A stretch of DNA of 64,000 nt from a virus. Lineage: Duplodnaviria > Heunggongvirae > Uroviricota > Caudoviricetes. The notes below the pieces were generated by a model. It was not told the origin of the DNA, ran no database searches, and saw nothing but the letters and a program-made list of their open reading frames with translations. The DNA is taken from the IMG/VR virus record IMGVR_UViG_3300029841_000009, positions 1-64,000 of that record; one strand, given 5' to 3'. Shown piece after piece: positions 1 through 64,000 of this stretch. Positions within the stretch are counted from its first letter, which is position 1. Each line of letters opens with the position of its first letter. A program made the translations under genes and the position numbers.

Positions 1-46
1 AAAACGAGTATTTTTAGTCATCCTGTTTACCTCTTTCTCAGGAAGT

Positions 47-2815
47 TTAGTCTCCAGGATTCCCGGGGCGGTTCAATGGCCCAAGAATACCGGATCTATC
101 TATACCCTCAAGCACCAGCTTCTCTGGTGACCAGTCAACATTTTTCCCTTTCGATGCTTCTTTAAGCGCATAGACCAGTGAGCCAAGAGCAATCTGAAAT
201 GCAGTGCCATAATAAAATTGCGCAGTTCCTTCCTGTAACCCACCAAGTAGCGCACGGTTGTATGAAGCCGTTGTGAATGATTTAAACTGAAATATCGTTC
301 GCCCCATTGGAGTACTCGCCCATAAAGGTGTGTCACCAATACCGGGGGTGATGATAGTGTTATTAACGTCTTTCAGAACCGCTGACTGGAATACTCCGGC
401 AACGTACTGATCGTCCCATTTATCAAAGTTACCAATGTGCCATCCATCAATTACCTCACCATGTTTCTCGAACTCACTGCGAATACGCGCAGCCATATTG
501 TCGTTGATACCGAGTTTTGCCAGGCGGCGTGCAGGAAATGCACCGGACAAAATACCGTCTGAAATAACCATTCCGTTCATGGATTTGTTTATGTCATTAA
601 AGCGATCCATGAGTGTCAGCTTGCCGAAGGCATCAGTAATTCGCTCCATTCCGGCTTCGACTGCTGTTGTCCTGGAAGAGCTGTCAACAAGATCACCAAT
701 TGCACGAGAGCGTGAATGCAGTACAGTTTCCAGTCCGATACCCATCTTCAACATCTCTTCTTTGCTGGCCTTAAATGCCGGTGATTGGGATATCTGAGAA
801 GCATAGCCTTTCATGGTGTTACGGAAACCATTAACCATAACCCCTCTGGCCAGATCTGGAATAGCTGATACTGTCATTCCACCGAGTTTGGTCGTGAAGT
901 TCACATCCCGCAGAAAAGCGCCAGCACGAACAAAAAACGAAGACGGGTCATCAGGCATACCATATGTACCAACAAGACGATCGCGTAATGCTGTTATGTC
1001 TCTGAGATCATTTGCTCTTGATTTTGAAAGTCTGGACTGTTCTTTCCGTAATTCCTTTTCGTACTTTCGCATTAATGAATCGAGTTTACCCTGAGGAACA
1101 ACTTCACCATTGCTCTCATAACGTGCTTTCAGATTTGCCACACTTTCGTCATATTTCGCCTTTATTTTTTCAGGCACTTCCCGTAACAGACTGTCATATT
1201 CGTCCTCAATTAATTGCAGACGCTCTGTCATAGTTCGTTTGCCAAATGTTCTCGTCAACTCAATTTCTGCTGCCGCTTCACGGATATGACGTTGTAGAAC
1301 GTAATTCACATCACTTTCGAGATAATCCCTGATAAGACTATCAGGCACATTTAATGTTCTTTCTTTCGTACTACCTGCGGCTTTTACAGAAAATACGCTG
1401 ACAAAATCCTGTGGAACCTTAGCACCAGTAATTTTATTAATTACGATATCCGCTGCAATTTCAGCATCCTCAGGATCCAGTGTTTTATTGCCTCTCGACC
1501 ACCAGTCAACCAAAATACGTCGAAATTTATCGCGTTCACTGATTATTTTTCCAACTTTATATATACGTGGGAAATAGCTTGCCTGGCCTAATGCTTTCAG
1601 TTCTTCATCTGGCGGCAATAAACCAAGCTTTTGCATTTCAACCTTCACCCGATTTAATACAGTTCGCATCGCCTGCGCCGTTTCCTGAACAACAGGATTA
1701 GCATGCACATCACCGCTTCGCATAGCATTCCCAACCTGCTGACGAAATGAATCAAAACTCATGTCACCACCATCAGCTTTATACTTTGCGTATGCCTGTT
1801 TATTTCCGACAACAACAGCAGCTTCTTCACGCTGCCATCCACGTGTACGGGTTTCTACAGCTACCGGTGTTTCAATCCCCCTTTCATTTCCTTTAAGGGT
1901 GAAATTATTTTCGGCTAACTCCAGCGTTGTTTTTCGCACTGTCTTGGACGGAGACTCCATTAACCTTGTCAAAGGAGTAAGATAGCTCCCTGCTTTCCAT
2001 GCAGCCTTTCCAACCACCCCACCGGAAACAGGGGTTAAATCATCCAGAGTCGCTGTATCAATTTTCATAGCACCAACACTACCACCATCAGAAAGCGAAG
2101 CGGCAGCCCTGTCAGTCACTGATGTAATGCTCATATTATCAAGAGCATCAGCAACCTCACGTGTGGCTGCAGCCCGGACGGATGGCGAAAGCGCAACACC
2201 AGCACTGGCAAACACGCCGCTCATTATCGCACCCGCTGCAACGTGAGCGGCACTTTCACCCCATGAGCGTGTTATTTGCTGATTATTCAGTACAACCTCG
2301 CTTAATGCAGTACCGGCAGCACCAATCGCAATCTGTGAGCCAATACGCGCCAGTGCCCCTCCTTGAGCACCTGGGATAAACATTGACGCAACAGTAACCG
2401 GGTCAAAAAGCATCGCTGTTGCACTGGCAATTCCACCAGCTAAGCCTGCTTCAGAGATAAAACGCCGATCTTCATTTTCATCATCTATCTGCTGCTTAAT
2501 CCACGCTGTTTCTTCTGGCGAGCGGGAACCTGCAAATTTCGCACCCCAGTATTCATAGCCGTGCAACTCATTTTTATCAGCATATGGGTTATAACCCTCG
2601 ACCGGTTCAAACTGTCTGGCAGGACGGAAAAAACCAGCCAGAATATTGTTCTGTCGTATTGCTGCGGCAAGCAATGAAGGCTCTTTTTGGCGAGGCTCAG
2701 GGTTCTTACCTTCTGGCGGATGCACATCAAAACTCTGTTCATCAGGTTCAGGAATGGCGCGACCAGCAGAAATAAATCCGTTATTGTTTGATTCAGATAC
2801 AGGATAGAACGGCAT
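47..2815 (-). CDS. large internal virion / ejection protein (T7 gp16-like position)
   Basis: 922-aa ORF at the distal end of the podovirus structural operon, with Gly/Ala-rich hydrophobic stretches; assignment is by size and position only. Confidence 0.45.
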   Translation of the reverse strand: MPFYPVSESNNNGFISAGRAIPEPDEQSFDVHPPEGKNPEPRQKEPSLLAAAIRQNNILAGFFRPARQFEPVEGYNPYADKNELHGYEYWGAKFAGSRSPEETAWIKQQIDDENEDRRFISEAGLAGGIASATAMLFDPVTVASMFIPGAQGGALARIGSQIAIGAAGTALSEVVLNNQQITRSWGESAAHVAAGAIMSGVFASAGVALSPSVRAAATREVADALDNMSITSVTDRAAASLSDGGSVGAMKIDTATLDDLTPVSGGVVGKAAWKAGSYLTPLTRLMESPSKTVRKTTLELAENNFTLKGNERGIETPVAVETRTRGWQREEAAVVVGNKQAYAKYKADGGDMSFDSFRQQVGNAMRSGDVHANPVVQETAQAMRTVLNRVKVEMQKLGLLPPDEELKALGQASYFPRIYKVGKIISERDKFRRILVDWWSRGNKTLDPEDAEIAADIVINKITGAKVPQDFVSVFSVKAAGSTKERTLNVPDSLIRDYLESDVNYVLQRHIREAAAEIELTRTFGKRTMTERLQLIEDEYDSLLREVPEKIKAKYDESVANLKARYESNGEVVPQGKLDSLMRKYEKELRKEQSRLSKSRANDLRDITALRDRLVGTYGMPDDPSSFFVRAGAFLRDVNFTTKLGGMTVSAIPDLARGVMVNGFRNTMKGYASQISQSPAFKASKEEMLKMGIGLETVLHSRSRAIGDLVDSSSRTTAVEAGMERITDAFGKLTLMDRFNDINKSMNGMVISDGILSGAFPARRLAKLGINDNMAARIRSEFEKHGEVIDGWHIGNFDKWDDQYVAGVFQSAVLKDVNNTIITPGIGDTPLWASTPMGRTIFQFKSFTTASYNRALLGGLQEGTAQFYYGTAFQIALGSLVYALKEASKGKNVDWSPEKLVLEGIDRSGILGPLNRPGNPGD

Positions 2816-5523
2816 TATTTAGATCCCCACGAAAAGTAATCTTTAAATTTGTCCATACGTTCGTTATGCAGGCGCTGATACTGCTCATCCAGAGCACGAT
2901 GCTTGTCTTTGAAGTTTTGTATAGCCTGTCCACGCATAATTTCTTCCTGCTCGTGCTGCTCCCGTTCCTGCTGCATTTTCTTATAAGGTTCCCAATCTTC
3001 TAGTGATGGCCCCCAGCGCATCAGTCTTCCATGCTTGTCATAAAATAAATCATCCCTCGTAATACCATCTTTATCTTTTGTTCTGATCACAACTGAATAA
3101 AGCTTATCTCTCGGAGTTGATAAATCAGGAACAAGAATCAACTCACCTCCAACCAGTGAGCGTGGTGTATTCAGTCCCAATGCACCAGCCTCAGTTGAAG
3201 GTCGGTTAAATGAAGGAGCTGGTTTATGCAAGTCATCGCCATACATGATTTTTTCTTTTTCAGCTTTCCATTGCGCTGCAATCCAGCCTGACGGCCCATA
3301 TTGATAAAGCGCCTCCGGTGCATATTTCATAAACTGTGCTTCCCCGTTGACCTCGCTGATACTCCAGGTGCGGGCTATCTGCTGGTTGGTCATTTGCTTC
3401 GCTACGTCAGCGTTACCACCAGCAAGGCGATAGTTAACGTCATACAGCATCTGATAGTCATTGCGAAAGAGCGCTGCTTCCGGCGTCTGGTCATCCGCAG
3501 ACGGATCCCAGCGAAGCCAATGAGCCATATTGCTGACAGCAGAATTGGCTGCGCTGTCACGCTCTTTTTTGTATTCTCTTGTACTCTGAACAGATGAGAG
3601 CTGCGCCCTTAGTGCATCTGTCTGGTTGTATGTCTTACTCTGCGCTTCCACAATAGCAGCATCAGAAGACATCCCTGCATCAGTTAGTTGCTTAACAGTC
3701 AGATAAAAACCCTGCATATCCTTCGGCATATTTCCAATAGATGCATTGTCTGTTTCATATAACCGACTAAACAGTTCCGCCGCATTTTTAACCACTTCCT
3801 GATTGCTGGATCGGGATACTGCTGAAAGCTGCGTGATGACCTGCGAAGGCATTATGCCAGTCTGAGCCACAAGCCGAACAACCCCATCATGAGTGGAGGC
3901 ATCATTAATACGAAAGTTCTGCGCCATTTCTGTGTAATCAGCAGCTTTCTGCATTGACTTGTTGCTTGGGTCTAATTTTTCACCTATTGTCAGCGCCTCA
4001 TTGAATCTGCGTGAATCCCGTTGCGCCTGAATTGCTTCATTTGATCTCTGAAGCAATGCAGACAATTTTCCGTAAGCATCGAGTTTTAACGCATAGTGAG
4101 GATCGTTAACCTCAGGCTTCACTTTCTGCATTTCTTCTTGCTGCTGAGAAGGAGGCAAATACTGAATTGCCTGGAATATTCTCGCGTTATCAATCGCTAT
4201 ATCCAGTTGATTGATTATTTTATCTGCGTTTTTTCCATACCCCCTGATGATGGTCTCCTGAGCCGGTATATAATCTGGAACCTCACCGTTATATAGCTGG
4301 GCCATGGTGTTATTAATAGCTGGCTCAAGCTGTTCTAATATTAACTTCCTTTGCTTTTCTATCTGACTATTAGCAAGGTTATCTATTTGATAAATAGTCA
4401 GCGGATCCATTCCAGTTTTATTTTTTCTATATCGGGAAAGCCACCCTTGTGTTTCTGATGGAAGATTTCGGATAAATTCTTCTTCTGATATTTCACCTTT
4501 ACGCGGATCACCGACTTTGGCGATCAGTTTATCCACGTTACCCATCCCCCAGTTATATGCTGCTCCGGTCAATATTTCTGAGCCGTACTTACCATACAGT
4601 TGATTTACATAGTCACTGGCAAGCATTTCATGCTGTTGTTCGTCCGTAGGGTTGTATTCAACGCCACGTTTGGCCGCCAGTTCTTTCCCTGTGCCCGGCA
4701 TTAACTGGTATTTCCCCTGGGCCCTCTCTCCAGAAGATGTTTTCGGTCCTTCAAGAATACTACCATCAGGATTAAAGTGACGATCACCTGATTCAACAAG
4801 GCGTATGGCACGCATGTCCATGCCTCCAGAATCATTTTTCTGAAACTGACCATTTAACCATCCTTCCGGGTTAGCAGCGGCATAATTCTTCGCCCGCATT
4901 TCTGTGGCACTGCGATCATCACTTTCTATTTCTTCCAGAATGCGTTCTTGTGACCATCCCCTGGCTGCTCCATATCTGGCAATGGCTACCATTCTGGAAT
5001 TTCTGGCTAAAGTGGCAGTTTGCGGGTCATTCCAGGCATCCGCTTCATTTTGTATCCATAATTTTCTCGTTGCCTGATATTGCTCATCTTCATAGGCATT
5101 TGTCTGCCCTATCTCATGTCTGAGAACTCCAGTACTGAACTGAATTTTCTGTGTTCTGGCTTGTTGCAAAAACATATTTCTTGCTGCTTCATCAGTCAAT
5201 GAAGCAGCTATTTCTTCCACATCCTGATCAAATCCAGATATGTACTCTTGCCCCTTACCAATCGCATTTTTGCCTTGTTGTGCATAAAAACCGGTTTGAG
5301 GGTTATAAAGACGTTCATTGCTGCGCTGATTAAGCTGAAGTATGGCATCCTGAGACAATGCAACATTCGCTTTCTGCCTGGCTTCACCATATGCCACCGC
5401 ATACTGATCTGCGACATTCGCCAGCACCTGACCTGCTTGAGGAACATCGAAGATCTGAAAACCACCGGTTTGCACACCACGACTTTGCACCTGGCGTCCG
5501 GATGTAGTAGGAACAACAGGCAT
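2815..5523 (-). CDS. internal virion protein with lytic transglycosylase (SLT) domain
   Basis: 902 aa; motifs SGERAQGKYQLMPGT ... AYNWG match the E-S / GLMQ / AYNAG pattern of family 1 lytic transglycosylases; start overlaps the upstream stop. Confidence 0.65.
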   Translation of the reverse strand: MPVVPTTSGRQVQSRGVQTGGFQIFDVPQAGQVLANVADQYAVAYGEARQKANVALSQDAILQLNQRSNERLYNPQTGFYAQQGKNAIGKGQEYISGFDQDVEEIAASLTDEAARNMFLQQARTQKIQFSTGVLRHEIGQTNAYEDEQYQATRKLWIQNEADAWNDPQTATLARNSRMVAIARYGAARGWSQERILEEIESDDRSATEMRAKNYAAANPEGWLNGQFQKNDSGGMDMRAIRLVESGDRHFNPDGSILEGPKTSSGERAQGKYQLMPGTGKELAAKRGVEYNPTDEQQHEMLASDYVNQLYGKYGSEILTGAAYNWGMGNVDKLIAKVGDPRKGEISEEEFIRNLPSETQGWLSRYRKNKTGMDPLTIYQIDNLANSQIEKQRKLILEQLEPAINNTMAQLYNGEVPDYIPAQETIIRGYGKNADKIINQLDIAIDNARIFQAIQYLPPSQQQEEMQKVKPEVNDPHYALKLDAYGKLSALLQRSNEAIQAQRDSRRFNEALTIGEKLDPSNKSMQKAADYTEMAQNFRINDASTHDGVVRLVAQTGIMPSQVITQLSAVSRSSNQEVVKNAAELFSRLYETDNASIGNMPKDMQGFYLTVKQLTDAGMSSDAAIVEAQSKTYNQTDALRAQLSSVQSTREYKKERDSAANSAVSNMAHWLRWDPSADDQTPEAALFRNDYQMLYDVNYRLAGGNADVAKQMTNQQIARTWSISEVNGEAQFMKYAPEALYQYGPSGWIAAQWKAEKEKIMYGDDLHKPAPSFNRPSTEAGALGLNTPRSLVGGELILVPDLSTPRDKLYSVVIRTKDKDGITRDDLFYDKHGRLMRWGPSLEDWEPYKKMQQEREQHEQEEIMRGQAIQNFKDKHRALDEQYQRLHNERMDKFKDYFSWGSK

Positions 5524-6089
5524 CAGTAACCTCCTATTTTGAATCGGGAGTCAGAATTCATAAAACCTGAGTTAGATAACATTGGCGTGTTTCCTTGCTT
5601 ACTAATCGGATTGATACTTCCGCTACCCAACTTATATGCACCGTATGCTTTTAGTGGTGCCGTTAACAAAGTGCTGGTCATCGATGATTTAGCAGCCGAC
5701 TGAGCAGCAGCCCCCTGTGCCTGAGCATTCATTCCCTGAACCTGATACCCATATGCCTCACGCTGAGCATTATTCACTGTCGTTAACGCATCAAGAGTGC
5801 CGAACTGAGCATTATCCGCAAAAACGTCAAGAGCTGTTCCGCTACTTAATTCCGCACCGGTAGCCCCCATAGTGGCCGCCGCAGTGCCTGAGCGTTGACG
5901 CATTTCACGACGACGCTGATCCGCTTCAATATTCCCACGATTGATTGAATCCTGTGCCTGAGCTTCAGCAATTTCAGCATTCCGATCAGCTATGGCTGAC
6001 TGGTATTTTGCCTGCTTGCTCTGGCTGTACATTGACGCGGCTGTGGATGCCACTGTGACGGCAACCAAAGCGATGGCTGGGTTACACAT
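5523..6089 (-). CDS. small virion protein, Ala/Gln-rich with N-terminal hydrophobic segment
   Basis: 188 aa, low-complexity A/Q-rich, hydrophobic N-terminus (AIALVAVTVASTAAS); sits among the internal virion protein genes. Confidence 0.4.
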   Translation of the reverse strand: MCNPAIALVAVTVASTAASMYSQSKQAKYQSAIADRNAEIAEAQAQDSINRGNIEADQRRREMRQRSGTAAATMGATGAELSSGTALDVFADNAQFGTLDALTTVNNAQREAYGYQVQGMNAQAQGAAAQSAAKSSMTSTLLTAPLKAYGAYKLGSGSINPISKQGNTPMLSNSGFMNSDSRFKIGGY

Positions 6090-6553
6090 TATTTTCTCTC
6101 CATGTGAAATCTGTGGAAATTAAGACCAAGAGCACCATAAGGCGCGGCTTCTTCAAGCCTGAATCCAAGCCAGTGCAGCCATGCTTTGGCAACATGGTTT
6201 CGCTCGTCGACATAGTTTTCCAGGCGCGGATAAACTGCCAGCATCTGCTGCAATACAGGGCGGCAGTGGCGAAGAAATGTCTTCTGATATTTTTCGATAC
6301 GGCTGGTTCCGACCAGCCAGGGCGTACCATTGCCACCGATCATTGACGCCGGAGATACGCCAAACATGGTTACCAGTTCTCCGTTCGCGAACCCTGACCA
6401 GGCCATAGTCGCAGTGCGCAGACCAACACGCAGCGCATCTTTGGTAGTCATCAGCGATACCGCATACAGTTCGTCAATATCAGCCTGACGAACATCCGGC
6501 AAAATCATCTGAAGATGCTCTTCGGTTGCGGGAATAATTTGAACATCGATCAT
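6089..6553 (-). CDS. hypothetical virion-module protein
   Basis: 154-aa ORF, translationally coupled inside the structural operon; no recognisable motif. Confidence 0.35.
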   Translation of the reverse strand: MIDVQIIPATEEHLQMILPDVRQADIDELYAVSLMTTKDALRVGLRTATMAWSGFANGELVTMFGVSPASMIGGNGTPWLVGTSRIEKYQKTFLRHCRPVLQQMLAVYPRLENYVDERNHVAKAWLHWLGFRLEEAAPYGALGLNFHRFHMERK

Positions 6554-9024
6554 CAGAATCCCCCAACAGTAAGGCGAGGAATAACGGCAAGAACAGACAG
6601 CGGCAACGGATCAAGCTGACGGATTTTTACACGTCCGTTTTTGCCCCAGTTACTGTCCAGTTTCACTTCTACTTTTCCGGTAGCATCATCAACAGGATCA
6701 TCGTAGAACTCGAATTCACGCTGTGGATATTCGTACCATTTACCGCCGGGCGTAGTCGCCCAGATGCCGCGACTGGCATTCACAACCAGAGTAACGGACG
6801 GGATCACCTGTTTTTTGTCCAGCAGCGTTTCCTGTCCGTTAATGTTGATATCCAGTGTTTCGAATTCAGCAGTTATTGGCAGGCCGATGTGCACTACAGC
6901 CCCCGGTGATTCCAGCGTGACGGCACCTCCGGAAACCACTTTCTGTGGTTCCACGTTCGCATCAGAGAGAATGTTTACGGTCTGGCCTTCAAGATGAGAC
7001 AGGCCTCCAAATGTCCGGCGCGCCATCTGCCAGTTCGTGGTGGCCACATTCCTGAGGGATGGCGGGACGTTCCTGTTAGCACGAACCACTACAGCGGTAT
7101 TGCTGGTTACAGAAATAATGTCGCAACGTAATTCTTTTGACACCTCATCGCCAGTATCAGGATCAGTTCCGGTATAAGGGAACTGTAGTTGCGCGCCGAC
7201 ATCACTACTGGTGAAGTACGCACCACCAGAAACACTGATTGTATATTCCGCGCGGTAATCCCATTCGCCAGAACCACCAGTGATGATCATCGTTCTGTCA
7301 GACGTATTTCTTCCATCATAGCTAAGGCCAGAATCAACAAAGAAAGCATCTTCATCGCTGGTAAATAAACGGCTGGACAGTCGCTCGATGTATCTCACTG
7401 TTTGCCCGTTAACGGTTCGGTTAACGACGAAATACACCGCATCTTCATTGCCTTCGCTGATACTGCATGTGCTTTCATATTTTCCGGTACTGGATTGTGG
7501 TGCCCATGCAAAAACCTGCTGATCACGCAAATAGGTCATCACCAGTAATTTACCGTCATCACGGATGCAGAAGGCGCTGGAGTAAGGGACTATTGAGAAG
7601 CACCAGTCAACAATGCTGTGCTTCTGAAAAAGATGATTGGCAAGGATAGTAAGGTCGTTCCCCTGATAGCCGTCAACATCGAATGAGTAGGCCAGATCAC
7701 GGACAACACTGCCTTTCTCCTGGACGAACAGAGCAATATTCGCCACGGCAATTGGTGGGACATTGCTCGAGCCATTTGATCCCTGAGAGCTGAATGCAAA
7801 TGATGATGGGGTAAGCACTTTGTTCTGGTCGCCAGTGATGACGTACTCACCTCCGGAAGTCAGCGCCACCAGCGAACCAACATCAATCAGGTGGCGGATC
7901 TCATTAACCTGACGCCCGGCATAGGTGTAGATAATTCTGTCGTCATCCTGCGTAGGATTGCTTTTGCCAAAATCCTTATAATCCCCGGTACGGCTGGCCC
8001 AGATAGTCTGAGGAAACGCAGTCGATGCGGCGAAGTAAAGACGTTGTTGATAATAAACAACAGTGCCAGGATAACCATTAACACTGTTCCAGGCATATTT
8101 AGCCCATTTATAGCTGGCATTATCCTCGCCAACTACCTGCGAAGGGATATAGGAAATCACCTCGGCAGTTGCAGTAGTTCCATTTGCAGCAGAGATACGG
8201 GCAATGCCAAAACCACTGTGCAGATACTCCCACTCAATGCCGGTATCATCATCACCGGATCCGCCCCAGCCATCCCATGATGTGCCTTCTGTATGCGAAG
8301 GGCGCAAAGTGCCTGTTTTGCCTACTGTAACGGCGCGATAGTAGTTACTGTCTGCACGGCGAATATCGCCAATTGACGTACTCTTACTGGTTTCCCATAC
8401 CGGCACAGAATCCACTGCAGGCTGTTCCAGATAGAACAATTTGCCTACCTGCTCCGCGCCAAAAATAGAGGCGCTTGCCGTTAACGTAATTGTCCCGGTG
8501 CTGGCGCTGGCATAAACCGTCACTGACTCGTCAATATTGATATCTTCAAATGGTCCGTTCTTCGTTACCACATCAACCAGTTGCCAGTTGTCATGCGCAT
8601 AGCGACGCAACTCTTTCGGCGGGTATGCCGGATGAACAAGCGTAAGCACGTCGGCGCTTTGCGTGAATTTAATTCGGAACAGATCGGCTTCAGTATATGG
8701 CGTGGCAATTTCATAAATAACATTGCTGCTGTTCAGCACCAACGCACCATCTTTGATAACGCGCATGTACTGGTGTCCGAACTCCAGAGCATAGGTCTGA
8801 ACCGTCGAGAACTGGAACGGGATCAGGCGGCATTTCCGATTTGGGTATTTGGCGGCACCGACAAAACGCGTACCTGGTCGATTCTCAACGCCGCCATACT
8901 GCCGCACGATAAAGTTATCGCACTTGCGCAATGCCACCTGGTACTTCGCCATGTCAATACGCCCGTACAACGACGGTCCAATCTCACCACCGGCAAAGCT
9001 GGGCTGGATCCAACTGATAGCCAT
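6553..9024 (-). CDS. tail tubular protein B-like (nozzle)
   Basis: 823 aa, immediately downstream of the adaptor-like gene as in the T7 gp11-gp12 order; size and position based. Confidence 0.45.
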   Translation of the reverse strand: MAISWIQPSFAGGEIGPSLYGRIDMAKYQVALRKCDNFIVRQYGGVENRPGTRFVGAAKYPNRKCRLIPFQFSTVQTYALEFGHQYMRVIKDGALVLNSSNVIYEIATPYTEADLFRIKFTQSADVLTLVHPAYPPKELRRYAHDNWQLVDVVTKNGPFEDINIDESVTVYASASTGTITLTASASIFGAEQVGKLFYLEQPAVDSVPVWETSKSTSIGDIRRADSNYYRAVTVGKTGTLRPSHTEGTSWDGWGGSGDDDTGIEWEYLHSGFGIARISAANGTTATAEVISYIPSQVVGEDNASYKWAKYAWNSVNGYPGTVVYYQQRLYFAASTAFPQTIWASRTGDYKDFGKSNPTQDDDRIIYTYAGRQVNEIRHLIDVGSLVALTSGGEYVITGDQNKVLTPSSFAFSSQGSNGSSNVPPIAVANIALFVQEKGSVVRDLAYSFDVDGYQGNDLTILANHLFQKHSIVDWCFSIVPYSSAFCIRDDGKLLVMTYLRDQQVFAWAPQSSTGKYESTCSISEGNEDAVYFVVNRTVNGQTVRYIERLSSRLFTSDEDAFFVDSGLSYDGRNTSDRTMIITGGSGEWDYRAEYTISVSGGAYFTSSDVGAQLQFPYTGTDPDTGDEVSKELRCDIISVTSNTAVVVRANRNVPPSLRNVATTNWQMARRTFGGLSHLEGQTVNILSDANVEPQKVVSGGAVTLESPGAVVHIGLPITAEFETLDININGQETLLDKKQVIPSVTLVVNASRGIWATTPGGKWYEYPQREFEFYDDPVDDATGKVEVKLDSNWGKNGRVKIRQLDPLPLSVLAVIPRLTVGGF

Positions 9025-9629: not shown

Positions 9630-9650
9630 AAGTTTCTATACTCCTGCAAT

Positions 9651-9672
9651 AAAGGGGCCGAAGCCCCTTGTC
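9651..9672 (-). terminator. intra-operon rho-independent terminator / attenuator
   Basis: GC hairpin AAGGGGCTTCGGCCCCTT followed by TTTATT on the minus strand, between two structural genes. Confidence 0.4.
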
Positions 9673-9685
9673 TGATTCGCGAGGC

Positions 9686-10030: not shown

Positions 10031-10031
10031 C

Positions 10032-10469: not shown

Positions 10470-10520
10470 CTTCTTTCTCCATTAGTGGGTCTGTTACGAC
10501 CCACAGGTTAATAACAGGCG

Positions 10521-11513: not shown

Positions 11514-11521
11514 TTCCTCTC

Positions 11522-14192: not shown

Positions 14193-14206
14193 TTCAATGA
14201 CTCCGG

Positions 14207-15487: not shown

Positions 15488-15504
15488 CGCCGTGACATGT
15501 CACA

Positions 15505-54921: not shown

Positions 54922-55157
54922 AAATCTCTTATCACCACTCGTTTAATTCGTGGGCCTCGGCGTATACCTGCTGATAATCTTTCTACTTCATTACGCCAGT
55001 AATCCATCTCTTTTCTGACTTCTGATAAATCCGCACGAGTTAACTGCCGCGTACCAAATTTATATGACTGACCGCCAATAGCAATAGCGCGATATGCTTC
55101 CCGCCAGACAGATAACATCTCTCTGGCTTCAGTCAGAGAAAATGCTTCATTGTTCAT
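54918..55157 (-). CDS. head-tail joining protein gpW-like
   Basis: 79 aa; IGGQSYKFGTRQLTRADLSEVRKE ... RRGPR aligns with the pattern of lambda gpW. Confidence 0.6.
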   Translation of the reverse strand: MNNEAFSLTEAREMLSVWREAYRAIAIGGQSYKFGTRQLTRADLSEVRKEMDYWRNEVERLSAGIRRGPRIKRVVIRDL

Positions 55158-57030: not shown

Positions 57031-57591
57031 TTATTCTTCCTGCTTAATAAATCGGGATTCCTGGAGCGCCTGAAGCGCAAAATTAATCTCGTCTTCAATA
57101 ATGCGTTCGATCTCCCTGGCTGTTTTGCCTTCACAACGGGGAGCTGCTCTTGGAGCAATACTAAATAAGCGGCTACGCAATTCATTAGCTGCCAGAAATG
57201 CATCATCCCTGACCGCATCTTTAGCGATGAGAGAGCCTTCCTTTTCTTCAAATTCAAGGCGTTTCAGCTTTGCCTGATAAATTTTTTCTGCGGTCTTAGC
57301 CTTGTTGAATTGCACCGCAACACCGGAAGTACCACCAGCTAATCCGGCATCATCAGCGGGTAACTCTGGTTGTTCCGAAGATATCCCATGCCCTCTTTTT
57401 CCATTTTCAGCAGATACCTCACGACCAACCTGTCGGCTCGCTTCATAAGCCGCACTGGCTTTATCAAAATCCAGCTTGCCGCTTTTCAGCACTGGAATGC
57501 GACCGGAACGACAGAGCTTCGTAACCATTGCCGGAGAAATACCTTTCCGGCGAGCAAACTCTGACTTACTGACGATGGCCATTACTTGCAA
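57031..57591 (-). CDS. terS: terminase small subunit (HTH DNA-binding)
   Basis: 186 aa; N-terminal helix-turn-helix (SKSEFARRKGISPAMVTKLCRSGRIP) immediately upstream of terL. Confidence 0.6.
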   Translation of the reverse strand: MQVMAIVSKSEFARRKGISPAMVTKLCRSGRIPVLKSGKLDFDKASAAYEASRQVGREVSAENGKRGHGISSEQPELPADDAGLAGGTSGVAVQFNKAKTAEKIYQAKLKRLEFEEKEGSLIAKDAVRDDAFLAANELRSRLFSIAPRAAPRCEGKTAREIERIIEDEINFALQALQESRFIKQEE

Positions 57592-58172
57592 CCATTAGCA
57601 AGATACTGAACAAATCCCTCATGCGTTTCATGCGCGTCGTGGTACTGACGATAAACATCCAGCAACAATGCAATTTCCATATCCGTCGCGGGAATACGTT
57701 CTTTATCAATAGCCAGGTACTTAATTTGAACAACAGGGGAAGAATTATCGTCTTCTTCCTGCGGCTGTTCATCGCTTAACATTTCGTCAAGCTCTGCATC
57801 ATTAAACCCAAGCAGATCAATATCAAAATCATCATCCATTAACTCTTTGACTTCTTCGGCCAGAAGCTGCATATCCCAGCCAGCATTTAAGGCCAGCTTG
57901 TTATCTGCAATCCTGTAAGCCTTCTTCTGTTTTTCAGAAAGGTTACTCAACCGAATCGCCGGAACTTTATCCATTTCCAGAATTTCGGCTGCTGCAAGCC
58001 GACCATGCCCCGCAATCAGTTCATTCTTTTCATCGATCAGCACAGGATTAGTGAAACCGAACTCACGGATACTGTTCACCAACTGTTCAACCTGCTCATC
58101 TGAATGAGTCCGTGAATTTTTGGCGTATCTGAGCAGCTTACCGACTGGTAAATATTCGATTTTTAGAGCCAT
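57582..58172 (-). CDS. ParB-like nuclease N-terminal domain protein
   Basis: 196 aa; ParB/Srx-type motif ...NPVLIDEKNELIAGHGRLAAA...; paralog of 60839..61462. Confidence 0.6.
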   Translation of the reverse strand: MALKIEYLPVGKLLRYAKNSRTHSDEQVEQLVNSIREFGFTNPVLIDEKNELIAGHGRLAAAEILEMDKVPAIRLSNLSEKQKKAYRIADNKLALNAGWDMQLLAEEVKELMDDDFDIDLLGFNDAELDEMLSDEQPQEEDDNSSPVVQIKYLAIDKERIPATDMEIALLLDVYRQYHDAHETHEGFVQYLANGCK

Positions 58173-58729
58173 TTTTTAACCGCCATAACACAACAGGTTA
58201 AAGAAAACTGTTTAACTTATTGATACTAAAAGAGAAAAATGACGATCTTTTTACTCATAAAAAATCACACAAACCAGCATAATCATCTGATTTTATTAAG
58301 TTTTTATAAGTAAAAAGGATCTTGAGATGGTGTTTTGGTTAAAAGATTGGATGTATTTGCATGATTTATAACGATTTTTATCAGAACAACATCACATTGG
58401 TTAAAGATCTGCGCGTATCTTGATGATCTAAAAGAAAATTTTCTACTTTCTTTTTACCAGCACAAATACAGCAAAAAATCACGTTTTCCCGATATTTTTC
58501 AATGAGATGAGTAAATTTCTTTTACCGCAACTTTTAACCTAACTTTTTTCACGTTTAGCTAGCCGAACATCGGGGTTCGAATGACCCGCATCCAACGCTT
58601 TTGTCCAGAAGGACCCAATTCTGCCGGACGATGAAACGATGCTCGTGCACCCCCACAGACAGCCAGCGAGCGACGCTACAGAACACAGTGAATACACTCT
58701 GCATAACAACACCATCAACCACACGATGA

Positions 58730-59449
58730 TTAACGAGAGAAGGTCTTGGAAAGAATGTCATCAATAGCCTTTGTGACTTCATCAGCAAACGCATCCTCAC
58801 CAGCACGCAGCGCCACGCCATGCCAATCAAGACGCTGCGAATAGTTAGGTTGCTGGATAAACGTAAGGATCAACGTAGGACGCCGCCCAACGCGCTGCCA
58901 GACGCCTGGTTGAAGCGGGTTACTTGTACCAGGTCGAACAACAAAAAACTCCGTAGGCTTGCCCTGACGGCGATTTTGATGCGCATCTCGCTGAACTCTT
59001 AGGCCAGATAAGACCTGCTGTAATTGCCCCCGCGAAATATTCCCGTATTTGTCCAGCTTTGCGCCGGGACCAGGAGCAATCTGCCAGCCGTTAGGCAAAT
59101 ATCCACCAGCCCTTAGCGCCCCTTCTGAGCGTTTGTACTGTCGTTGGCCACCTTCGATTTGCGGAGTCAACGTTACAGGGGCTGGCGTTCCTCCCCATTC
59201 ACGAGCATACACAATGGCTGTAGGATCACTCTTCTTTGCGGCCAAAACGTAAGTAGAGTTCTGAATCCACGGCGTGGGCCTGTCAAATACCCGATTAATT
59301 TCATTCTTAATCGCAGCCTGAGAAGCCTTTGCCGTTCTGGTTGCCGCAAGCGCCATTGCGAACGGCAATTCGCGTTCTTCAAGGCGCTGGAGTTGTCGTT
59401 GAATATCCTGAGAAGAAAAATCCATCTTTATCTCAATTCTGTCAGCCAC
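58730..59449 (-). CDS. hypothetical protein
   Basis: 239-aa ORF between the ParB-like genes. Confidence 0.4.
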   Translation of the reverse strand: MADRIEIKMDFSSQDIQRQLQRLEERELPFAMALAATRTAKASQAAIKNEINRVFDRPTPWIQNSTYVLAAKKSDPTAIVYAREWGGTPAPVTLTPQIEGGQRQYKRSEGALRAGGYLPNGWQIAPGPGAKLDKYGNISRGQLQQVLSGLRVQRDAHQNRRQGKPTEFFVVRPGTSNPLQPGVWQRVGRRPTLILTFIQQPNYSQRLDWHGVALRAGEDAFADEVTKAIDDILSKTFSR

Positions 59450-59465
59450 CAGCGCCTCCTACACA

Positions 59466-60845
59466 CTACTTAATCAACGGCCGGAAAGCCGCCAGCACAT
59501 CATCAGATCGTCCGATTGTTGAACCACCAGGCAACGGCAACTCAAACTCAAAACGAACAGCTTTCTCCAGACTCGCCCAACTAAGGGAATCATCGTTAAT
59601 GACGTGCAAATACCAGCTCTTACAGTTGAATATTGACCGCTTAATCCTGAAACCATGTACACGACACAACTGCTTCACTTCCTCATCAGAGTGAAACTTC
59701 TGGTAAAACCAGTGCCCCTTCCGGTACAACGCGGTAAAACCGTCATGATCAATAAAATAAAGCCGGCTTTTGGAACTCGCCGCTTGTGTTTGCTTCAGGA
59801 CTGTTTCCAGTTCTCCACGGCTACGGCCAGAAAAGAATATTGACCCACCAGCTTTACACAGGCCTTTCAGAACCGTCAGAACGGACCATTCAGCCTCGAC
59901 ACTATCGACCGAGTTCAAAACGCTATCGCAAATCACGTAGTCGTAACGCCCTCGCGTTTTTAAGTCGTCCACCAGCGTATCAATCATCCGGTTTGTTGCG
60001 GCCCTATCCAGAGTGTTTCCAGCGCCCTTACGGCGGAAAAGCTCGAGATCATGCAGGTTATATCCCTTTGCCCTGAGCATTCGCGCGTAGTCTCCCTGCC
60101 CCGAACCAAAATCAATTCCTCTTGGCGTCTTGGCAATGATCGGGAGGATCAACGACTCATACAGATTTGATTTCAGGCTGCCACCATTACGCAACCGCAT
60201 AAGCTGCGCATACGTCTGGATGTATGTTGTTTTCTCCAGATGAGAATACTCAAATACACCATAAGTTTTATTCAGATAACTTTGGTATTTTTCCTTCTCA
60301 ACATCAGGGATCACAAACACCGTTAGCGGTGTGCGCGTCATTTTCGCTGCTAATGCATACTGAGCACAGTGAATAACCTCACCAGACTGAGTAGCAACAC
60401 AACCACCCCACGGACCATACTTGATAACCAGTTCCGCTATGTTCTTTCGAACATATGCCATTTTCGCGCGCATATTGCCTGAGATCTGGCTTGCCGATAC
60501 CTGAACAAAACCATGCTTATCTTCCAGACCGGACACCCTGCAACGCTCATCTCCGCTATCAAAATCCGTTCCGTTATGCAGTTGGTTAAACCGTACTTCG
60601 TCGTATACCGTCGTTTCACAGGGCAACACATACACCGCAGCACGCGTTATTCCCAACTTACGTAGCGCCTTCGTCCTTTGGTGTCCCGCCACCAGCAAAT
60701 CGCCGCGCACTATCAATGGCTTCACAAGCCCCAGCTCCCTGACGCTTTCCGCCAGCCTCGCAAGATCATCCTCACCGATAAAACGCGGGTTATATTCCGC
60801 GCCGCGTAGGTGCGTTATGTCGTAATTGAGGTGAAGCATCAGCAC
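59466..60845 (-). CDS. ParB-like N-terminal domain fused to a class I SAM-dependent methyltransferase
   Basis: 459 aa; N-terminal ParB motif (LIVRGDLLVAGHQRTKAL), C-terminal motif I IDFGSGQGDY and acidic post-I residues; no DPPY/NPPY motif, so the substrate is unclear. Confidence 0.6.
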   Translation of the reverse strand: MLMLHLNYDITHLRGAEYNPRFIGEDDLARLAESVRELGLVKPLIVRGDLLVAGHQRTKALRKLGITRAAVYVLPCETTVYDEVRFNQLHNGTDFDSGDERCRVSGLEDKHGFVQVSASQISGNMRAKMAYVRKNIAELVIKYGPWGGCVATQSGEVIHCAQYALAAKMTRTPLTVFVIPDVEKEKYQSYLNKTYGVFEYSHLEKTTYIQTYAQLMRLRNGGSLKSNLYESLILPIIAKTPRGIDFGSGQGDYARMLRAKGYNLHDLELFRRKGAGNTLDRAATNRMIDTLVDDLKTRGRYDYVICDSVLNSVDSVEAEWSVLTVLKGLCKAGGSIFFSGRSRGELETVLKQTQAASSKSRLYFIDHDGFTALYRKGHWFYQKFHSDEEVKQLCRVHGFRIKRSIFNCKSWYLHVINDDSLSWASLEKAVRFEFELPLPGGSTIGRSDDVLAAFRPLIK

Positions 60846-61462
60846 ACCTCCCCAGCCAGCAATGCGGATACAAATCCGATATAGCTGCCATTATCATCAA
60901 CATAACGAGACACCGCGCAGTCAAAACGATCCGCTTCCTCATCCGTTGCCGGGATTTTATGACCTCCAAATGACAGGTACTGAACTTTTACGCCTGATTT
61001 GGCCTCATCCTTCTCAAATGGGATATCCATACCCTCTGTGTCATCGTAGACTGCCGCACTCAATAAGTTATCCAGTTCGCGCTGAGTAAAACCAATTGAG
61101 TCCAGAGCAAAATCATCGGCCGCAAGATCTGCAAGCTCCGCGCTTAACAACTCTTCATCCCAACCAGCATTCAGCGGAATACGGTTGTCGGCCAGACGAT
61201 ATGCCTTCTTCTGATTCTCCGTTAGCCCAGCCAGAACAATGCAGGGAACATCATCCATCCCCAACTGAGTGGCCGCAGCAATTCGACCATGACCAGCAAT
61301 TACAACGTTGTTCTCGTCTATCAGGATCGGATTAGTCCATCCGTACTCCTGTATGCTGGCAACAATCTGATCTACCTGCTCCACGGAGTGTGTGCGAGCG
61401 TTCTTTTCATAACCAATCAACACAGAAAGTGGTAAAGAAACCACATTAAGATGTTTTGTCAT
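60839..61462 (-). CDS. ParB-like nuclease N-terminal domain protein
   Basis: 207 aa; ...NPILIDENNVVIAGHGRIAAA...; about 60 percent identical to 57582..58172 over the N-terminal domain. Confidence 0.6.
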   Translation of the reverse strand: MTKHLNVVSLPLSVLIGYEKNARTHSVEQVDQIVASIQEYGWTNPILIDENNVVIAGHGRIAAATQLGMDDVPCIVLAGLTENQKKAYRLADNRIPLNAGWDEELLSAELADLAADDFALDSIGFTQRELDNLLSAAVYDDTEGMDIPFEKDEAKSGVKVQYLSFGGHKIPATDEEADRFDCAVSRYVDDNGSYIGFVSALLAGEVC

Positions 61463-61696
61463 GCCGTTTATCCGCTAAAATCCCCTCGCTTGTGCAAGCA
61501 AGTGGGCCTCGGTTTGTATCCACGGCACCCTGTGGGTATGAATGACTGTCGTCAGGTCGCAACTGACGGCGGTCGCCCACCTTCCAGTAATAAAAAAGCC
61601 ACCAGCATTAACTCCACAGCGAGCAGGAGTTAATGAGGCAGCTTTGGTTTGCGCATTATCGCAGCCCCTGATTAGCACAAGAGCTGCTGTAATGCG

Positions 61697-62107
61697 TTAC
61701 GCAGGGATCAAACAGATGTGGCCGTTATTTACCTCAATACGGGAATATTCCGGCTTACCATCCACGATTCCGGTAATGACAAGTTCGCCATCAGGCGACC
61801 ATTCTTCTTTGTCGTCTTCAAGTACCGCGCCTTCTGGCAAATCAATACAGGCAAAAACAGGGCAGCCAGGATGACGTTTATCCTCCATCGCAATCAGCAT
61901 CGACTCACCGAACCACTCTGTGGTAGCACGGCCATCAGCCGCCTGATAGTGAATCAGATACTGGTTTTCGCCATTTGCATACTGAGCACGGGCTTGAACT
62001 TCTCCCCACTCTTCACTGATACGCATTGTTACCAGTTGGGATAATTCAAACTTAAACGGAACAGACTCTGCACCAATGGCAATCGGTTTATCTTCTTTCT
62101 TTTCCAT
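61697..62107 (-). CDS. hypothetical protein
   Basis: Internal Met (MEKKEDKP) with an AGGTGA ribosome-binding site, inside track ORF 61697..62176; a hairpin terminator lies upstream. Confidence 0.4.
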   Translation of the reverse strand: MEKKEDKPIAIGAESVPFKFELSQLVTMRISEEWGEVQARAQYANGENQYLIHYQAADGRATTEWFGESMLIAMEDKRHPGCPVFACIDLPEGAVLEDDKEEWSPDGELVITGIVDGKPEYSRIEVNNGHICLIPA

Positions 62108-62156
62108 AACATCACCTGAAAATAAAAAGCCCCGCGACACCGCGAGGCTGTAAGAG

Positions 62157-62309
62157 TTACTTTCGATATAAATCAAGGCGCATTTGCTCCCGCTTAAGCC
62201 GAAAAGCCCTCTGCGCCACTAAGATGCGCCACAGGACACCAGCGATAACCACCAGCGAGATACAAAAACACACGGCCACAACCATCAGAAAAATGCCAAC
62301 ACCATTCAT
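62157..62309 (-). CDS. small membrane protein (50 aa, not in ORF track)
   Basis: Hand translation gives MNGVGIFLMVVAVCFCISLVVIAGVLWRILVAQRAFRLKREQMRLDLYRK; ATGA start/stop overlap with the upstream 70-aa membrane ORF. Confidence 0.35.
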   Translation of the reverse strand: MNGVGIFLMVVAVCFCISLVVIAGVLWRILVAQRAFRLKREQMRLDLYRK

Positions 62310-62518
62310 GAAACTATCCATTCTTCAATGAATATCTCCAGTAATGTCAAGAGATACGCCGTCCCCAGCGCGGTTCCTACCGATATAGCTAAGACAAACC
62401 TCAAAGATAACGAGGTGTCTTTCGCTTTTCTCCAGACGTAAGCGCCAGCTAGAAATACCAACAAATCTCTTATTGGAAGCGGAAACCAGAACAAATCACT
62501 CGGCATAAGCACGATCAT
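62306..62518 (-). CDS. small membrane protein (70 aa, two predicted transmembrane segments)
   Basis: Hydrophobic segments LLVFLAGAYVW and FVLAISVGTALGTAYLLTLL. Confidence 0.4.
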   Translation of the reverse strand: MIVLMPSDLFWFPLPIRDLLVFLAGAYVWRKAKDTSLSLRFVLAISVGTALGTAYLLTLLEIFIEEWIVS

Positions 62519-62795
62519 CTTCCGCTGCTGATTTACATGCCGCAGTTACTGATATATTGATAACCGGTGCGCTAATCGTGATGGACGACGCTGTCGGTTG
62601 ACGCGATATAACTGAACGATGGCTATCAATGAAGTCCACAATCTCATTCAGGCACTCTTTAGCTGCCTCATCGTGACTTTTTCCGTATGCTTCATGGAGG
62701 ACTTTCATCCTCATCATTGCTCCGTCACATATAGTCGAAAGCGCGTAAAGCACATCACTAACCGCCATTTCTTTTTTGGTGCTTGTCGAAGGCAT
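62496..62795 (-). CDS. hypothetical protein
   Basis: 99-aa ORF preceded by a hairpin terminator of the upstream operon. Confidence 0.4.
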   Translation of the reverse strand: MPSTSTKKEMAVSDVLYALSTICDGAMMRMKVLHEAYGKSHDEAAKECLNEIVDFIDSHRSVISRQPTASSITISAPVINISVTAACKSAAEDDRAYAE

Positions 62796-62869
62796 CCCAT
62801 GTTCTCCTTTGTCTGGATGTAAAAAAGCCCCGGCAATTGCCGAGGCTCGTTGTTCGTTATCGTTACGGT

Positions 62870-63070
62870 TTAATGCTCGCGTCGTCCGGCGACAACTTCG
62901 GATTTGTATTTCAGGTCGCCCAGCAAGAATTGCAGTTTAAGCATCTTTGCCGCCGTGTAGTTCCCTGATTCCACAACCTCTTTCATGAGGTCATAAACGG
63001 CCGCTACATCATCAGCCAGGAACTCTTTGCGTTGCTGCTCAGTCGCACGTTTGAAGGAAATACGCATCAC
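62870..63070 (-). CDS. hypothetical protein (second gene of repeat-C cassette)
   Basis: 66 aa; ATGA overlap with the upstream gene; hairpin plus T-run downstream. Confidence 0.4.
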   Translation of the reverse strand: MMRISFKRATEQQRKEFLADDVAAVYDLMKEVVESGNYTAAKMLKLQFLLGDLKYKSEVVAGRREH

Positions 63071-63336
63071 TCATCATCTCCTGCCGCACATACAACCTCA
63101 CAAAAAAAATCAGCAGAATGTTTCTCCTTGAACGAATGACGCTCAAAACCGCACTCAATATCAGGCGCAAAAACATCCACCACATACGGTCTTTCAGAAT
63201 GTTTGTTTTCCCAACGATAAACCGTAGTGACGTTGAAATGTTTTAACGCTTCACGGAACTCAACGCTGCCAGTCAGGTTTTTTGAGGTCAGGTATTGCAG
63301 GAGGTTTTTTACTACTTCACGGTCTTGTACTTTCAT
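63067..63336 (-). CDS. hypothetical protein (first gene of repeat-C cassette)
   Basis: 89-aa ORF starting at the repeat. Confidence 0.45.
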   Translation of the reverse strand: MKVQDREVVKNLLQYLTSKNLTGSVEFREALKHFNVTTVYRWENKHSERPYVVDVFAPDIECGFERHSFKEKHSADFFCEVVCAAGDDE

Positions 63337-63449
63337 CGGGTTATCTCCGGTTTAACCAGGGCGGGTATCGCTCGGTTTCGGGTATAACCATAGGAAATTT
63401 TTTCCCACCTGTAAAGCACTTTTATATAAATCTATAATTATATAATTCT
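63334..63449 (-). repeat. promoter-leader repeat, copy C
   Basis: Nearly identical to copy B across about 115 bp including the start-codon context. Confidence 0.7.
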
Positions 63450-64000
63450 ATACCACTTGCCAGAGAGCATCATGCAACTGGATACTTCCATTGCACTGGT
63501 TGCCCCAGCCATGCCAACCATCAGGTAAATCACCGCGAGCAAACAGCTCAATACGAGGAACATCACCTAACAGCCTTACCAGCTTGTCACGAACCACATC
63601 AGGCTTCCGAGAATGCTCCAGACGAGGCGATGTAAACGACTGAATGATCCCCGCATCAAGGCGGGTCGGCAATTTGCCTTTTACCGCAAACAAGCAATCT
63701 TCACTGTTTGCACGAGTCATATGCCCCATCCCCATCACCAGCTTATCTGGTTGTCGGCTACCACATTTGTTCCATGTGAAGCCCTTCATGGTCATAAGCC
63801 TGAATCCCCATGCTTTCACCACCAGCAACGCTTCTTCTGGCTGAGTCGGAACCCACCACATGGCCAACAAACACGATTCAGGATTAGCAAGCTGCCAGAC
63901 AGGAATACGAGCAATATCCTCAGCTTTCATCGTTGGATACTTAAAACCAGCTCCACGATTCCCATCCTTACACTTATCTTTGTATTCCCAGGGGGGATCT
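63448..64000 (-). CDS. MT-A70-family N6-adenine DNA methyltransferase (5' end beyond window)
   Basis: Track ORF 63448..63930 stays open in frame to the window edge, where the upstream codons read DPPWEYKDK (the catalytic DPPW motif). Confidence 0.6.
   Translation of the reverse strand, partial: DPPWEYKDKCKDGNRGAGFKYPTMKAEDIARIPVWQLANPESCLLAMWWVPTQPEEALLVVKAWGFRLMTMKGFTWNKCGSRQPDKLVMGMGHMTRANSEDCLFAVKGKLPTRLDAGIIQSFTSPRLEHSRKPDVVRDKLVRLLGDVPRIELFARGDLPDGWHGWGNQCNGSIQLHDALWQVV

Follow-up and report, generated by a model that had tools for sequence, protein, structure and literature searches.

Why should a single stretch of viral DNA carry two unrelated sets of virion genes and no recognisable integrase or lysis genes? 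This question is raised by positions 1 to 64,000 of the IMG/VR record IMGVR_UViG_3300029841_000009 (Caudoviricetes), and the whole 64,000-nucleotide stretch is called the window below. An earlier note, made from the letters alone, described a podovirus-type set and a lambda-head/contractile-tail set on the same strand, and proposed two tandem prophages, a hybrid element or a mis-assembly. Our comparisons suggest that the window is probably one end of a cointegrate of two temperate elements that resided together in Escherichia coli. One is a Uetakevirus-type prophage, and the other is a phage-plasmid of about 48 kb.

The gene identifications of the earlier note were essentially right according to Pfam. 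The podovirus-type set was found on the minus strand at 47-17727, and it was supported by Pfam matches and by 95-98% DNA identity to phiV10/TL-2011b. The lambda-head/contractile-tail set lay on the same strand at 36373-57591 and was also supported by Pfam, with the sheath identified through the Prokaryotic Genome Annotation Pipeline (PGAP) annotation of a 99%-identical plasmid. The gap between the two sets, given earlier as about 19 kb, is 18.6 kb, and this interval is the plasmid-maintenance, immunity and early region of the phage-plasmid. However, the statement that both modules are complete did not hold, and the podovirus set is cut by the left end of the window.

Two temperate elements in the window

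Judged from collinearity with known phages, window 1 to about 19140 is the late half of a Uetakevirus (phiV10/TL-2011b/epsilon15-like) temperate podophage of a kind found as an ordinary E. coli prophage. In megablast comparisons, window 73-18107 was collinear with the late region of TL-2011b (95-98% identity), and window 6085-19950 matched phiV10 and the O157 typing phages 9 and 10, all Uetakevirus, at 95-98%. The genes in 47-9629 correspond one by one to gp33-gp38 of TL-2011b. More widely, the late region 47-18107 follows phiV10, TL-2011b, O157 typing phages 9/10 and epsilon15 gene for gene (95-98%), including an internal tRNA-Arg; the same tRNA-Arg is annotated in O157 typing phage 9 and in chromosomal relatives. 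Furthermore, a contig with a normal chromosomal prophage (L007) was 100% identical to the window over 8192-19140, and a human-gut metagenome contig (L005) over 1-12815. The gene order of the pre-terminase accessory genes (17768-18799) was identical in three normal prophages (L006-L008). The hallmark virion proteins of the podophage were represented by PF12236, PF20911 and PF24072 matches in the window, and PF25181 and PF21190 are recorded for identical genes.

In the annotated relatives, the genes are arranged in the order integrase, recombination genes, repressor, DnaT/P, DUF1064, Ea22/DUF551 array, terS, terL and portal, followed by capsid, tail tube, internal virion proteins, tailspike, O-antigen modification and holin/endolysin/Rz. 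The one chromosomal relative whose flank was visible adjoins guaA. The window holds only the part from the array through the last internal virion protein gene. A tblastn search with the TL-2011b tailspike gave no match in the window; in the relatives the tailspike lies beyond the last internal virion protein gene, and here both it and the lysis cassette would be left of window position 1. Likewise, tblastn found no tyrosine integrase, RecT, P, tailspike or holin/endolysin/Rz of the podophage type in the window, which contains only part of this genome. The podophage module is thus incomplete within the window. In the other direction, the window differs from the normal Uetakevirus relatives examined in that it continues into the phage-plasmid instead of DUF1064, P, DnaT, repressor, RecET-type genes and integrase.

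Towards the left end of the window, similarity to all relatives stops at position 73 (3′ end of the 922-aa gene), and the only contig that is 100% identical there (L005) stops 51 bp past window position 1 (L005 12816-12866). The DNA immediately to the left may therefore be variable or repeated, a place where assemblies break.

The rest of the window, from about 19811 to 64000, is by its gene content and relatives almost the whole of a myovirus phage-plasmid of about 48 kb. A full set of virion, packaging and tail genes is present (by Pfam, with the sheath and the rest from the annotation of the 99%-identical plasmid), together with genes for plasmid replication (RepA, PF02387) and partition (a ParA-type ATPase). 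The circular plasmid pMB9698_3 (NZ_CP103471.1, 47,715 bp) was collinear with window 20273-64000 when read round the circle, at about 99% identity. The free 48.6-kb plasmid contigs L015 and L017 were 100% identical to the window over 19811-30962, and L015 was also 100% identical over 58860-64000, so that 16.3 kb was compared in total. Window 57582-64000 was collinear with the plasmid L001. In addition, the records deposited as Yersinia phages vB_YpM_39/41/44 (49 kb) had about 98-99% identity over most shared stretches, including repA, which is indirect evidence that such elements may form infectious virions. The free E. coli phage-plasmids pMB9698_3, pCE-O153H30-B and the 48.5-kb plasmid of ATCC 25922, as well as vB_YpM_39/41/44, have the same gene order as window ~19811-64000 at 98-100% identity. 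The window and these phage-plasmids have in common RepA, ParA, the XRE/S24 repressor, C4/isrK with the antirepressor, the RelE-type toxin-antitoxin pair, the lambda-type head, the P2/Mu-type contractile tail and the ParB/Srx-like genes. We found no paper describing this ~48-kb phage-plasmid family by name.

In complete genomes, the members of this family are found outside the chromosome. The RepA region was found at 79 places in 71 of the 5,426 complete E. coli genomes, all on plasmids (mostly 47-52 kb) and none chromosomal. The relatives in complete genomes are extrachromosomal, whereas the copy in the window is contiguous with podophage DNA: its circle is opened in the Ea22 array and runs into the podophage instead of into its own lysis cassette. 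The composition along the window also varies: G+C is 44-48% up to 6 kb, about 50% at 6-21 kb and as low as 37-41% at 39-53 kb, which is consistent with more than one origin. Nearly all long open reading frames (ORFs) of the window are on the minus strand.

The joint and the missing genes

The two elements meet within an array of Ead/Ea22, DUF7446, DUF551 and ASCH genes. This variable array stands at the end of the rightward early operon in both families, just before terS in the podophage and just before the lysis cassette in the phage-plasmid. The joint is seamless: three genes (a hybrid Ea22 gene, a DUF7446 gene and a second Ea22 gene) are intact, all reading frames are kept and there is no att-like discontinuity. 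In maps of single-nucleotide differences, L007 equals the window up to 19140 and then has 34 mismatches by 19447. From the other side, L015 and L017 equal the window from 19811 rightwards for at least 11 kb, with seven mismatches in 19704-19810, and both lack the DUF7446 gene. The layout is therefore podophage-type DNA, then a 0.7-kb block (19141-19810), then phage-plasmid-type DNA. The interval is covered by a single draft contig, L011, which is 100% identical to the window over 18967-19941. The resulting overlaps of perfect identity are 174 bp (18967-19140) and 131 bp (19811-19941). Such overlapping parental identities are characteristic of homologous recombination giving a cointegrate, or else of an assembler passing through the repeat that the parents share. 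We also considered whether two contigs had been concatenated in the dataset, and rejected this, since the transition has no seam, keeps the frame and falls within homologous genes.

DUF7446-Ea22 pairs are also present in normal phiV10-type prophages (L024 and L025), as is a homologue of the 198-aa Ea22 gene in its 3′ part. The simplest history would therefore be one crossover in 19811-19941 between the phage-plasmid and a prophage variant that already held the 0.7-kb block. The 1-kb segment of the array at the joint was matched in 2,690 of the 5,426 complete genomes (4,333 chromosomal and 636 plasmid places), and it is an obvious and ubiquitous substrate for homologous exchange. At the joint, the early half of the podophage (integrase, recET, repressor and DnaT/P) is gone, where normal prophages have it.

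A joint of the same kind was found in L011, a 75.5-kb draft contig (GCA_958321215.1, CATTCA010000026.1; joint in locus 1-13500). This contig has only two differences from window 19942-25872, the early operon of the phage-plasmid, and it leaves the phage-plasmid at the same spot in the 198-aa Ea22 gene as the window does. On the prophage side it carries DUF7446, Ea22, DUF551, Ant and a lambda-type integrase adjoining torS. Beyond the spot L011 is matched by normal lambdoid prophages, and the plasmids match it up to and somewhat past the spot. No complete genome spanned the L011 joint. Either docking through Ea22 recurs in nature, or assemblers recurrently cross the Ea22 repeat.

The earlier note was also right that no recombinase and no lysis set can be recognised. 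None was found by Pfam among 50 ORFs of the window, and tblastn with both parental-type integrases, the Hin invertase of the phage-plasmid family and the lysis cassettes of both families gave no match in the window at the cut-off of E ≤ 1e-3. A Hin-type invertase beside repA is the only recombinase seen in the phage-plasmid family; many members have one, unlike the copy in the window. No integrase was present in any annotated complete member examined, and a phage-plasmid with RepA and ParA needs none. A 393-aa plus-strand ORF at 28988-30169 was considered as a hidden integrase and rejected, being an ORF6N/Rha antirepressor by Pfam. The lysis cassette of the phage-plasmid is missing because the window ends at 64000. 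In L015, L017 and L018, two holins, a GH108 endolysin and a fourth small gene lie between the accessory array and the MT-A70 gene, and by collinearity with L015 this cassette should lie at window-equivalent 64713-66252, about 0.7 kb beyond 64000. The podophage lysis genes and integrase, judging from the relatives, would normally be outside the window too. Half a prophage joined to an integrase-less phage-plasmid, with both lysis cassettes cut off by the window ends, thus explains why neither an integrase nor lysis genes are found between the virion sets.

Cointegrate or chimeric assembly

The explanations offered earlier did not fare equally. A hybrid in the form of a cointegrate and a mis-assembly are both live, and tandem prophages are not favoured, since there is no integrase or att boundary and the early half of the first element is lost. 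The cointegrate is supported by two independent assemblies with phage-plasmid-to-prophage joints at the same spot, and the intact reading frames across the joint also speak for it. In addition, recombination functions are available on both sides, namely a Ref-family nuclease in the phage-plasmid and RecT/exonuclease in the podophage relatives. However, several observations weigh against it. The joint was found in none of the 5,426 complete E. coli genomes, none of 72,556 plasmids and none of 50,697 phage records, and the exact junction patterns were absent from the viral, genome and metagenome contig collections. For a 70-mer from the junction block, these three collections gave only two partial matches, L027 and L028, and both are arranged differently. 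The hybrid Ea22 protein was absent from the exact-protein index, which was also negative for a 95-aa ORF overlapping the DUF7446 gene. Among the viral contigs, 60-mers from the podophage part hit 40 loci, none of which crossed into the phage-plasmid. In PLSDB, no plasmid carried phiV10-type DNA together with the phage-plasmid; only 41-kb circular phiV10-type records and Klebsiella modules were found. Furthermore, the RepA region is never chromosomal in complete genomes, and neither the reciprocal joint nor a chromosome flank was seen.

These negative results would also be expected if an ordinary phiV10-type prophage and a free 48-kb phage-plasmid had been joined by an assembler through their shared exact Ea22/DUF7446 repeat, an explanation that we regard as less probable and still a serious competitor. 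The joint is placed exactly where the parents share 131-174 bp of perfect identity, and both flanks are 100% identical to separately existing elements, as expected of an in-silico chimera. The arrangement is unique across all collections searched, and the replicon of the family is otherwise always extrachromosomal. The position of the window start only 51 bp from the end of L005 hints at a short-read draft contig starting at a repeat. The only further joint of this type comes from a draft contig as well, L011, whose end falls at a different repeated gene of the phage-plasmid. On the other hand, a short-read assembler that fails to resolve a repeat will normally end the contig there instead of joining across it, and a repeat of 131-174 bp is bridged by ordinary read pairs, so that a contig crossing it usually reflects real molecules. 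The 0.7-kb block 19141-19810 matches neither of the 100%-identical parents, and a simple walk through a two-parent graph fails to produce it. The agreement of two independent assemblies also speaks against a chimera.

The two remaining explanations are much weaker. A single functional hybrid phage or phage-plasmid that stably bears two alternative virion modules would fit the apparently intact and co-oriented gene sets, and the early operon of the phage-plasmid does run towards the podophage late genes. Nevertheless, the 64-kb window is already longer than the genomes of either parental family (39-45 kb and 47-52 kb), neither a tailspike nor lysis genes accompany the podophage set within it, and no relative with both modules was present in any collection searched; we consider such a hybrid very improbable. 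If anything, a tandem pair of ordinary prophages is even harder to accept; each of them would have an integrase, att sites and lysis genes of its own just outside the window. The earlier note had named this arrangement as the one that would make the locus ordinary. Half of it agrees with our results: by the collinear relatives, 100% identical where compared, the lysis genes of both elements are expected outside the window. However, an integrase or att site is not expected for the second element, whose family has RepA and ParA and no integrase in the complete members examined. Meanwhile, the whole early half of the first element, including its integrase, is missing at the boundary, and this boundary is a homologous crossover within a gene, with no att-like discontinuity.

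If the window is one end of a cointegrate, its history may be as follows. Of the prophage parent only the late half is present, beginning with the pre-terminase accessory genes and ending with the last internal virion protein gene. The phage-plasmid parent would replicate as a plasmid during lysogeny by its IncFII-family RepA and its ParA, hence its lack of an integrase. If the circular phage-plasmid underwent one crossover with the prophage (or with the circular form of the prophage) within the shared Ea22-type array, the whole 48-kb element would be placed in the pre-terminase array of the podophage, flanked by direct repeats of the shared Ea22 sequence. Such a joint would be formed in vivo by RecA-dependent or phage-recombinase-assisted recombination. 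The transcription direction would be shared, the Ea22 genes would be intact, and both elements would keep all their genes in an altered order. The early operon of the phage-plasmid would now point into the podophage 117-aa gene and terminase genes, with a terminator-like hairpin (17701-17718) between, and the early operon of the podophage would point into the lysis and late genes of the phage-plasmid. The reciprocal joint would be expected about 4.4-4.7 kb past 64000, after a tRNA-Ile, the two holins, the GH108 endolysin and the rest of the array, and beyond it would come the early region and integrase of the podophage. At about 90 kb, the complete structure would not fit into either capsid, and packaging of either phage genome would first require resolution by recombination at the flanking repeats. 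The cointegrate may be in the chromosome or may be a ~90-kb plasmid, and both locations are compatible with the window.

A bolder proposal is that the cointegrate is real, forms and resolves reversibly in vivo, and that Ea22/DUF7446 recombination is a general integrase-free way of docking into different resident prophages (phiV10-type here, lambdoid at torS in L011). We think that this is unlikely. If it were true, the SOS-responsive early operon of the plasmid would stand upstream of a foreign late module, the early operon of the resident phage would stand upstream of the lysis and late genes of the plasmid, and inducing one element could drive the virion genes of the other.

Similar associations have been described. 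P1-like phage-plasmids have been found integrated in chromosomes beside resident prophages, and the cause was left open (Pfeifer & Rocha 2024, PMC10879196). Cointegrates of phage-plasmids and phages are expected on general grounds (the tyPPing paper, PMC12977533). The window resembles the integrated P1-like elements of these studies in that the replication and partition genes are kept, the element is linked to a resident integrative prophage and it has no integrase of its own. However, this phage-plasmid family is outside the ten typed groups named in PMC12977533. In addition, unlike in the P1-like cases, the joint in the window can be assigned to one particular gene common to both partners, with overlaps of homology.

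In lambdoid-type mosaicism, phages undergo homologous recombination at shared accessory genes. The joint is similar in that the exchange point falls in a conserved accessory gene of wide distribution, with no change to the gene order or the reading frames. It differs in that the partners are a plasmid-borne myovirus and a chromosomal podovirus, and both modules are kept as a cointegrate instead of being swapped. If the joint is real, it would extend the known cases to another E. coli phage-plasmid family, a common one, and to a homologous joint whose position is mapped. It would then provide a base-level example of an integrase-less phage-plasmid linking to a resident prophage through a shared accessory gene, and the Ea22-type array, matched in about half of the complete E. 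coli genomes, would be a recombination hub linking plasmid-borne and chromosomal phages. Should it instead be an artefact, it would serve as a warning that, in draft assemblies and prophage predictions, repeats common to a prophage and a phage-plasmid can yield false "giant prophages" bearing two virion modules.

Gene map and regulatory features

The features of the window are collected in Table 1.

Table 1. Features of the 64,000-nt window, in order of position
Feature	Position	Strand	Basis or remark
922-aa internal virion protein	47-2815	-	Pfam, TL-2011b match
902-aa internal virion protein, SLT transglycosylase domain	2815-5523	-	Pfam, TL-2011b match
T7-gp14-like core protein	5523-6089	-	Pfam, TL-2011b match
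154-aa protein	6089-6553	-	TL-2011b gene-order match
823-aa tail tube protein	6553-9024	-	Pfam, TL-2011b match
201-aa connector/tube protein	9024-9629	-	Pfam, TL-2011b match
Small head proteins including Bbp16-type cement	9686-10469	-	Pfam, relatives' annotations
Major capsid GP7, epsilon15-type, PF20911	10521-11513	-	Pfam
Protease/scaffold	11522-12223	-	Pfam, relatives' annotations
Bbp19-like protein	12220-12516	-	Pfam, relatives' annotations
Portal, T7-type head-tail connector, PF12236 (E = 3e-187)	12513-14192	-	Pfam
tRNA-Arg(TCT), between portal and terL	14841-14917	+	ARAGORN and Rfam
Podophage terL	15578-17053	-	Collinear with TL-2011b gp21/gp22
Podophage terS, Terminase_2, PF03592	ORF 17050-17727, true start probably further in	-	Pfam; collinear with TL-2011b gp21/gp22
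Terminator-like hairpin and T-run	17701-17718		Just upstream of podophage terminase genes
117-aa protein	from 17768	-	Pre-terminase accessory gene; "transcriptional regulator" in TL-2011b
DUF551 protein	18192-18569	-	Pre-terminase accessory gene
77-aa protein	18566-18799	-	Pre-terminase accessory gene
Ead/Ea22 gene, hybrid, intact, 215 aa	18796-19443	-	Pfam
DUF7446 gene	19430-19684	-	Pfam
Second Ead/Ea22 gene, 198 aa	19681-20277	-	Pfam
Phage-plasmid early operon as a whole	20264-25276	-	Collinear, 98.7-100%, with plasmids L001 and L015
ASCH-like protein, then two small genes	20264-20962	-	Pfam
DUF3560	21689-22756	-	Pfam
DUF1064	23307-23639	-	Pfam
Ref-family RecA-dependent nuclease	23636-24040	-	Pfam; further small genes to 25276
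XRE helix-turn-helix repressor, weak peptidase-S24 match	25451-26107	+	Pfam
124-aa gene between repressor and ParA	within 25451-27378	+	
ParA ATPase	26710-27378	+	Pfam
ryfA-like RNA, 142 bits	27893-28189	-	Rfam gathering-score match
isrK RNA, 70 bits (gathering 50)	28561-28634	+	Rfam
C4 antisense RNA, 84 bits (gathering 45)	28659-28746	+	Rfam
ORF6N/Rha antirepressor, 393 aa	28988-30169	+	Pfam
Helix-turn-helix antitoxin	32920-33219	-	Pfam, relative's annotation
Type II toxin, Gp49/RelE-HigB-type	33219-33572	-	Pfam, relative's annotation
RepA, IncFII RepA family, PF02387 (E = 1e-43)	35029-36009	-	Pfam
Tfa	36373-36948	-	Contractile-tail module
Tail fibre	36948-39752	-	Pfam
Baseplate I/J/W/V/D-like genes	39783-43883	-	Pfam (baseplate J), PGAP names of 99%-identical plasmid
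Tape measure	44084-46876	-	Pfam
Tail assembly protein	47031-47312	-	Contractile-tail module
Tail tube FII, PF04985	47322-47843	-	Pfam
Tail sheath	47860-49323	-	PGAP annotation of 99%-identical plasmid
Head-tail joining genes	49323-50832	-	Pfam/relative's annotation
Capsid E, PF03864	50833-51876	-	Pfam
Decoration-like protein	51897-52280	-	Pfam/relative's annotation
ClpP-type protease	52290-53378	-	Pfam
Lambda-family portal, PF05136	53347-54921	-	Pfam
gpW-like DUF6148	about 54918-55157	-	Pfam/relative's annotation
terL, gpA-type, PF05876/PF20454	55169-57025	-	Pfam
Putative terS	57031-57591	-	Pfam/relative's annotation
ParB/Srx-like genes	57582-58172, 60839-61462	-	Pfam
ParB-N/methyltransferase fusion, 459 aa	59466-60845	-	Pfam
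MT-A70 methyltransferase, cut by window end	63448-64000	-	Pfam; small genes also in 57582-64000

Several features of the phage-plasmid part may be regulatory. The XRE/S24 repressor gene and the early operon are divergent, and the perfect palindrome with 14-bp arms that separates them (25297-25330, CACGATATGTGGT...ACCACATATCGTG) is a likely candidate operator. The C4 and isrK RNAs are directly upstream of the ORF6N/Rha gene, and by its arrangement the region 27893-30169 resembles an antirepressor control region of the P1/P7 immI type or the Gifsy isrK type. In addition, an element of about 119 nt occurs three times (22752-22870, 32754-32872 and 63333-63451), immediately upstream of the minus-strand genes for DUF3560, a 126-aa protein and an 89-aa protein, respectively. 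It contains an AT-rich repeat, a near-consensus promoter (TTTACA, 17 nt, TATGGT), a conserved leader of about 60 nt, a GGAGA ribosome site and the ATG, and it is conserved in the free plasmids. It looks like a predicted shared promoter/leader that would co-regulate three operons of the phage-plasmid.

Three genes with ParB/Srx-N domains (57582-61462), one of them fused to a methyltransferase, lie just upstream of the phage-plasmid terminase genes. The deposited genome of vB_YpM_39 begins beside these genes, at window-equivalent ~58587.

Some plasmid records related to the two elements depart from the usual sizes. The plasmid pN10e (NZ_JBUBMA010000006.1, L022/L023, 57.4 kb) is free and 100% identical over the repA region, and it has an internal duplication of about 12.5 kb from the protease and capsid genes to a baseplate gene (head-to-baseplate). 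The ATCC 25922 plasmid record NZ_CP032086.1 is 94 kb long and contains two copies of the repA region. Both cases are probably assembly duplications or dimers of the 48-kb plasmid. Meanwhile, two PLSDB records from duck E. coli isolates (NZ_CP079771.1 and NZ_CP079768.1) are 41,027-bp "plasmids" that match phiV10-type late genes, and they may be circular or induced phage genomes. Finally, distant epsilon15-like head modules (77-78%) are found inside large Klebsiella plasmids in the same database.

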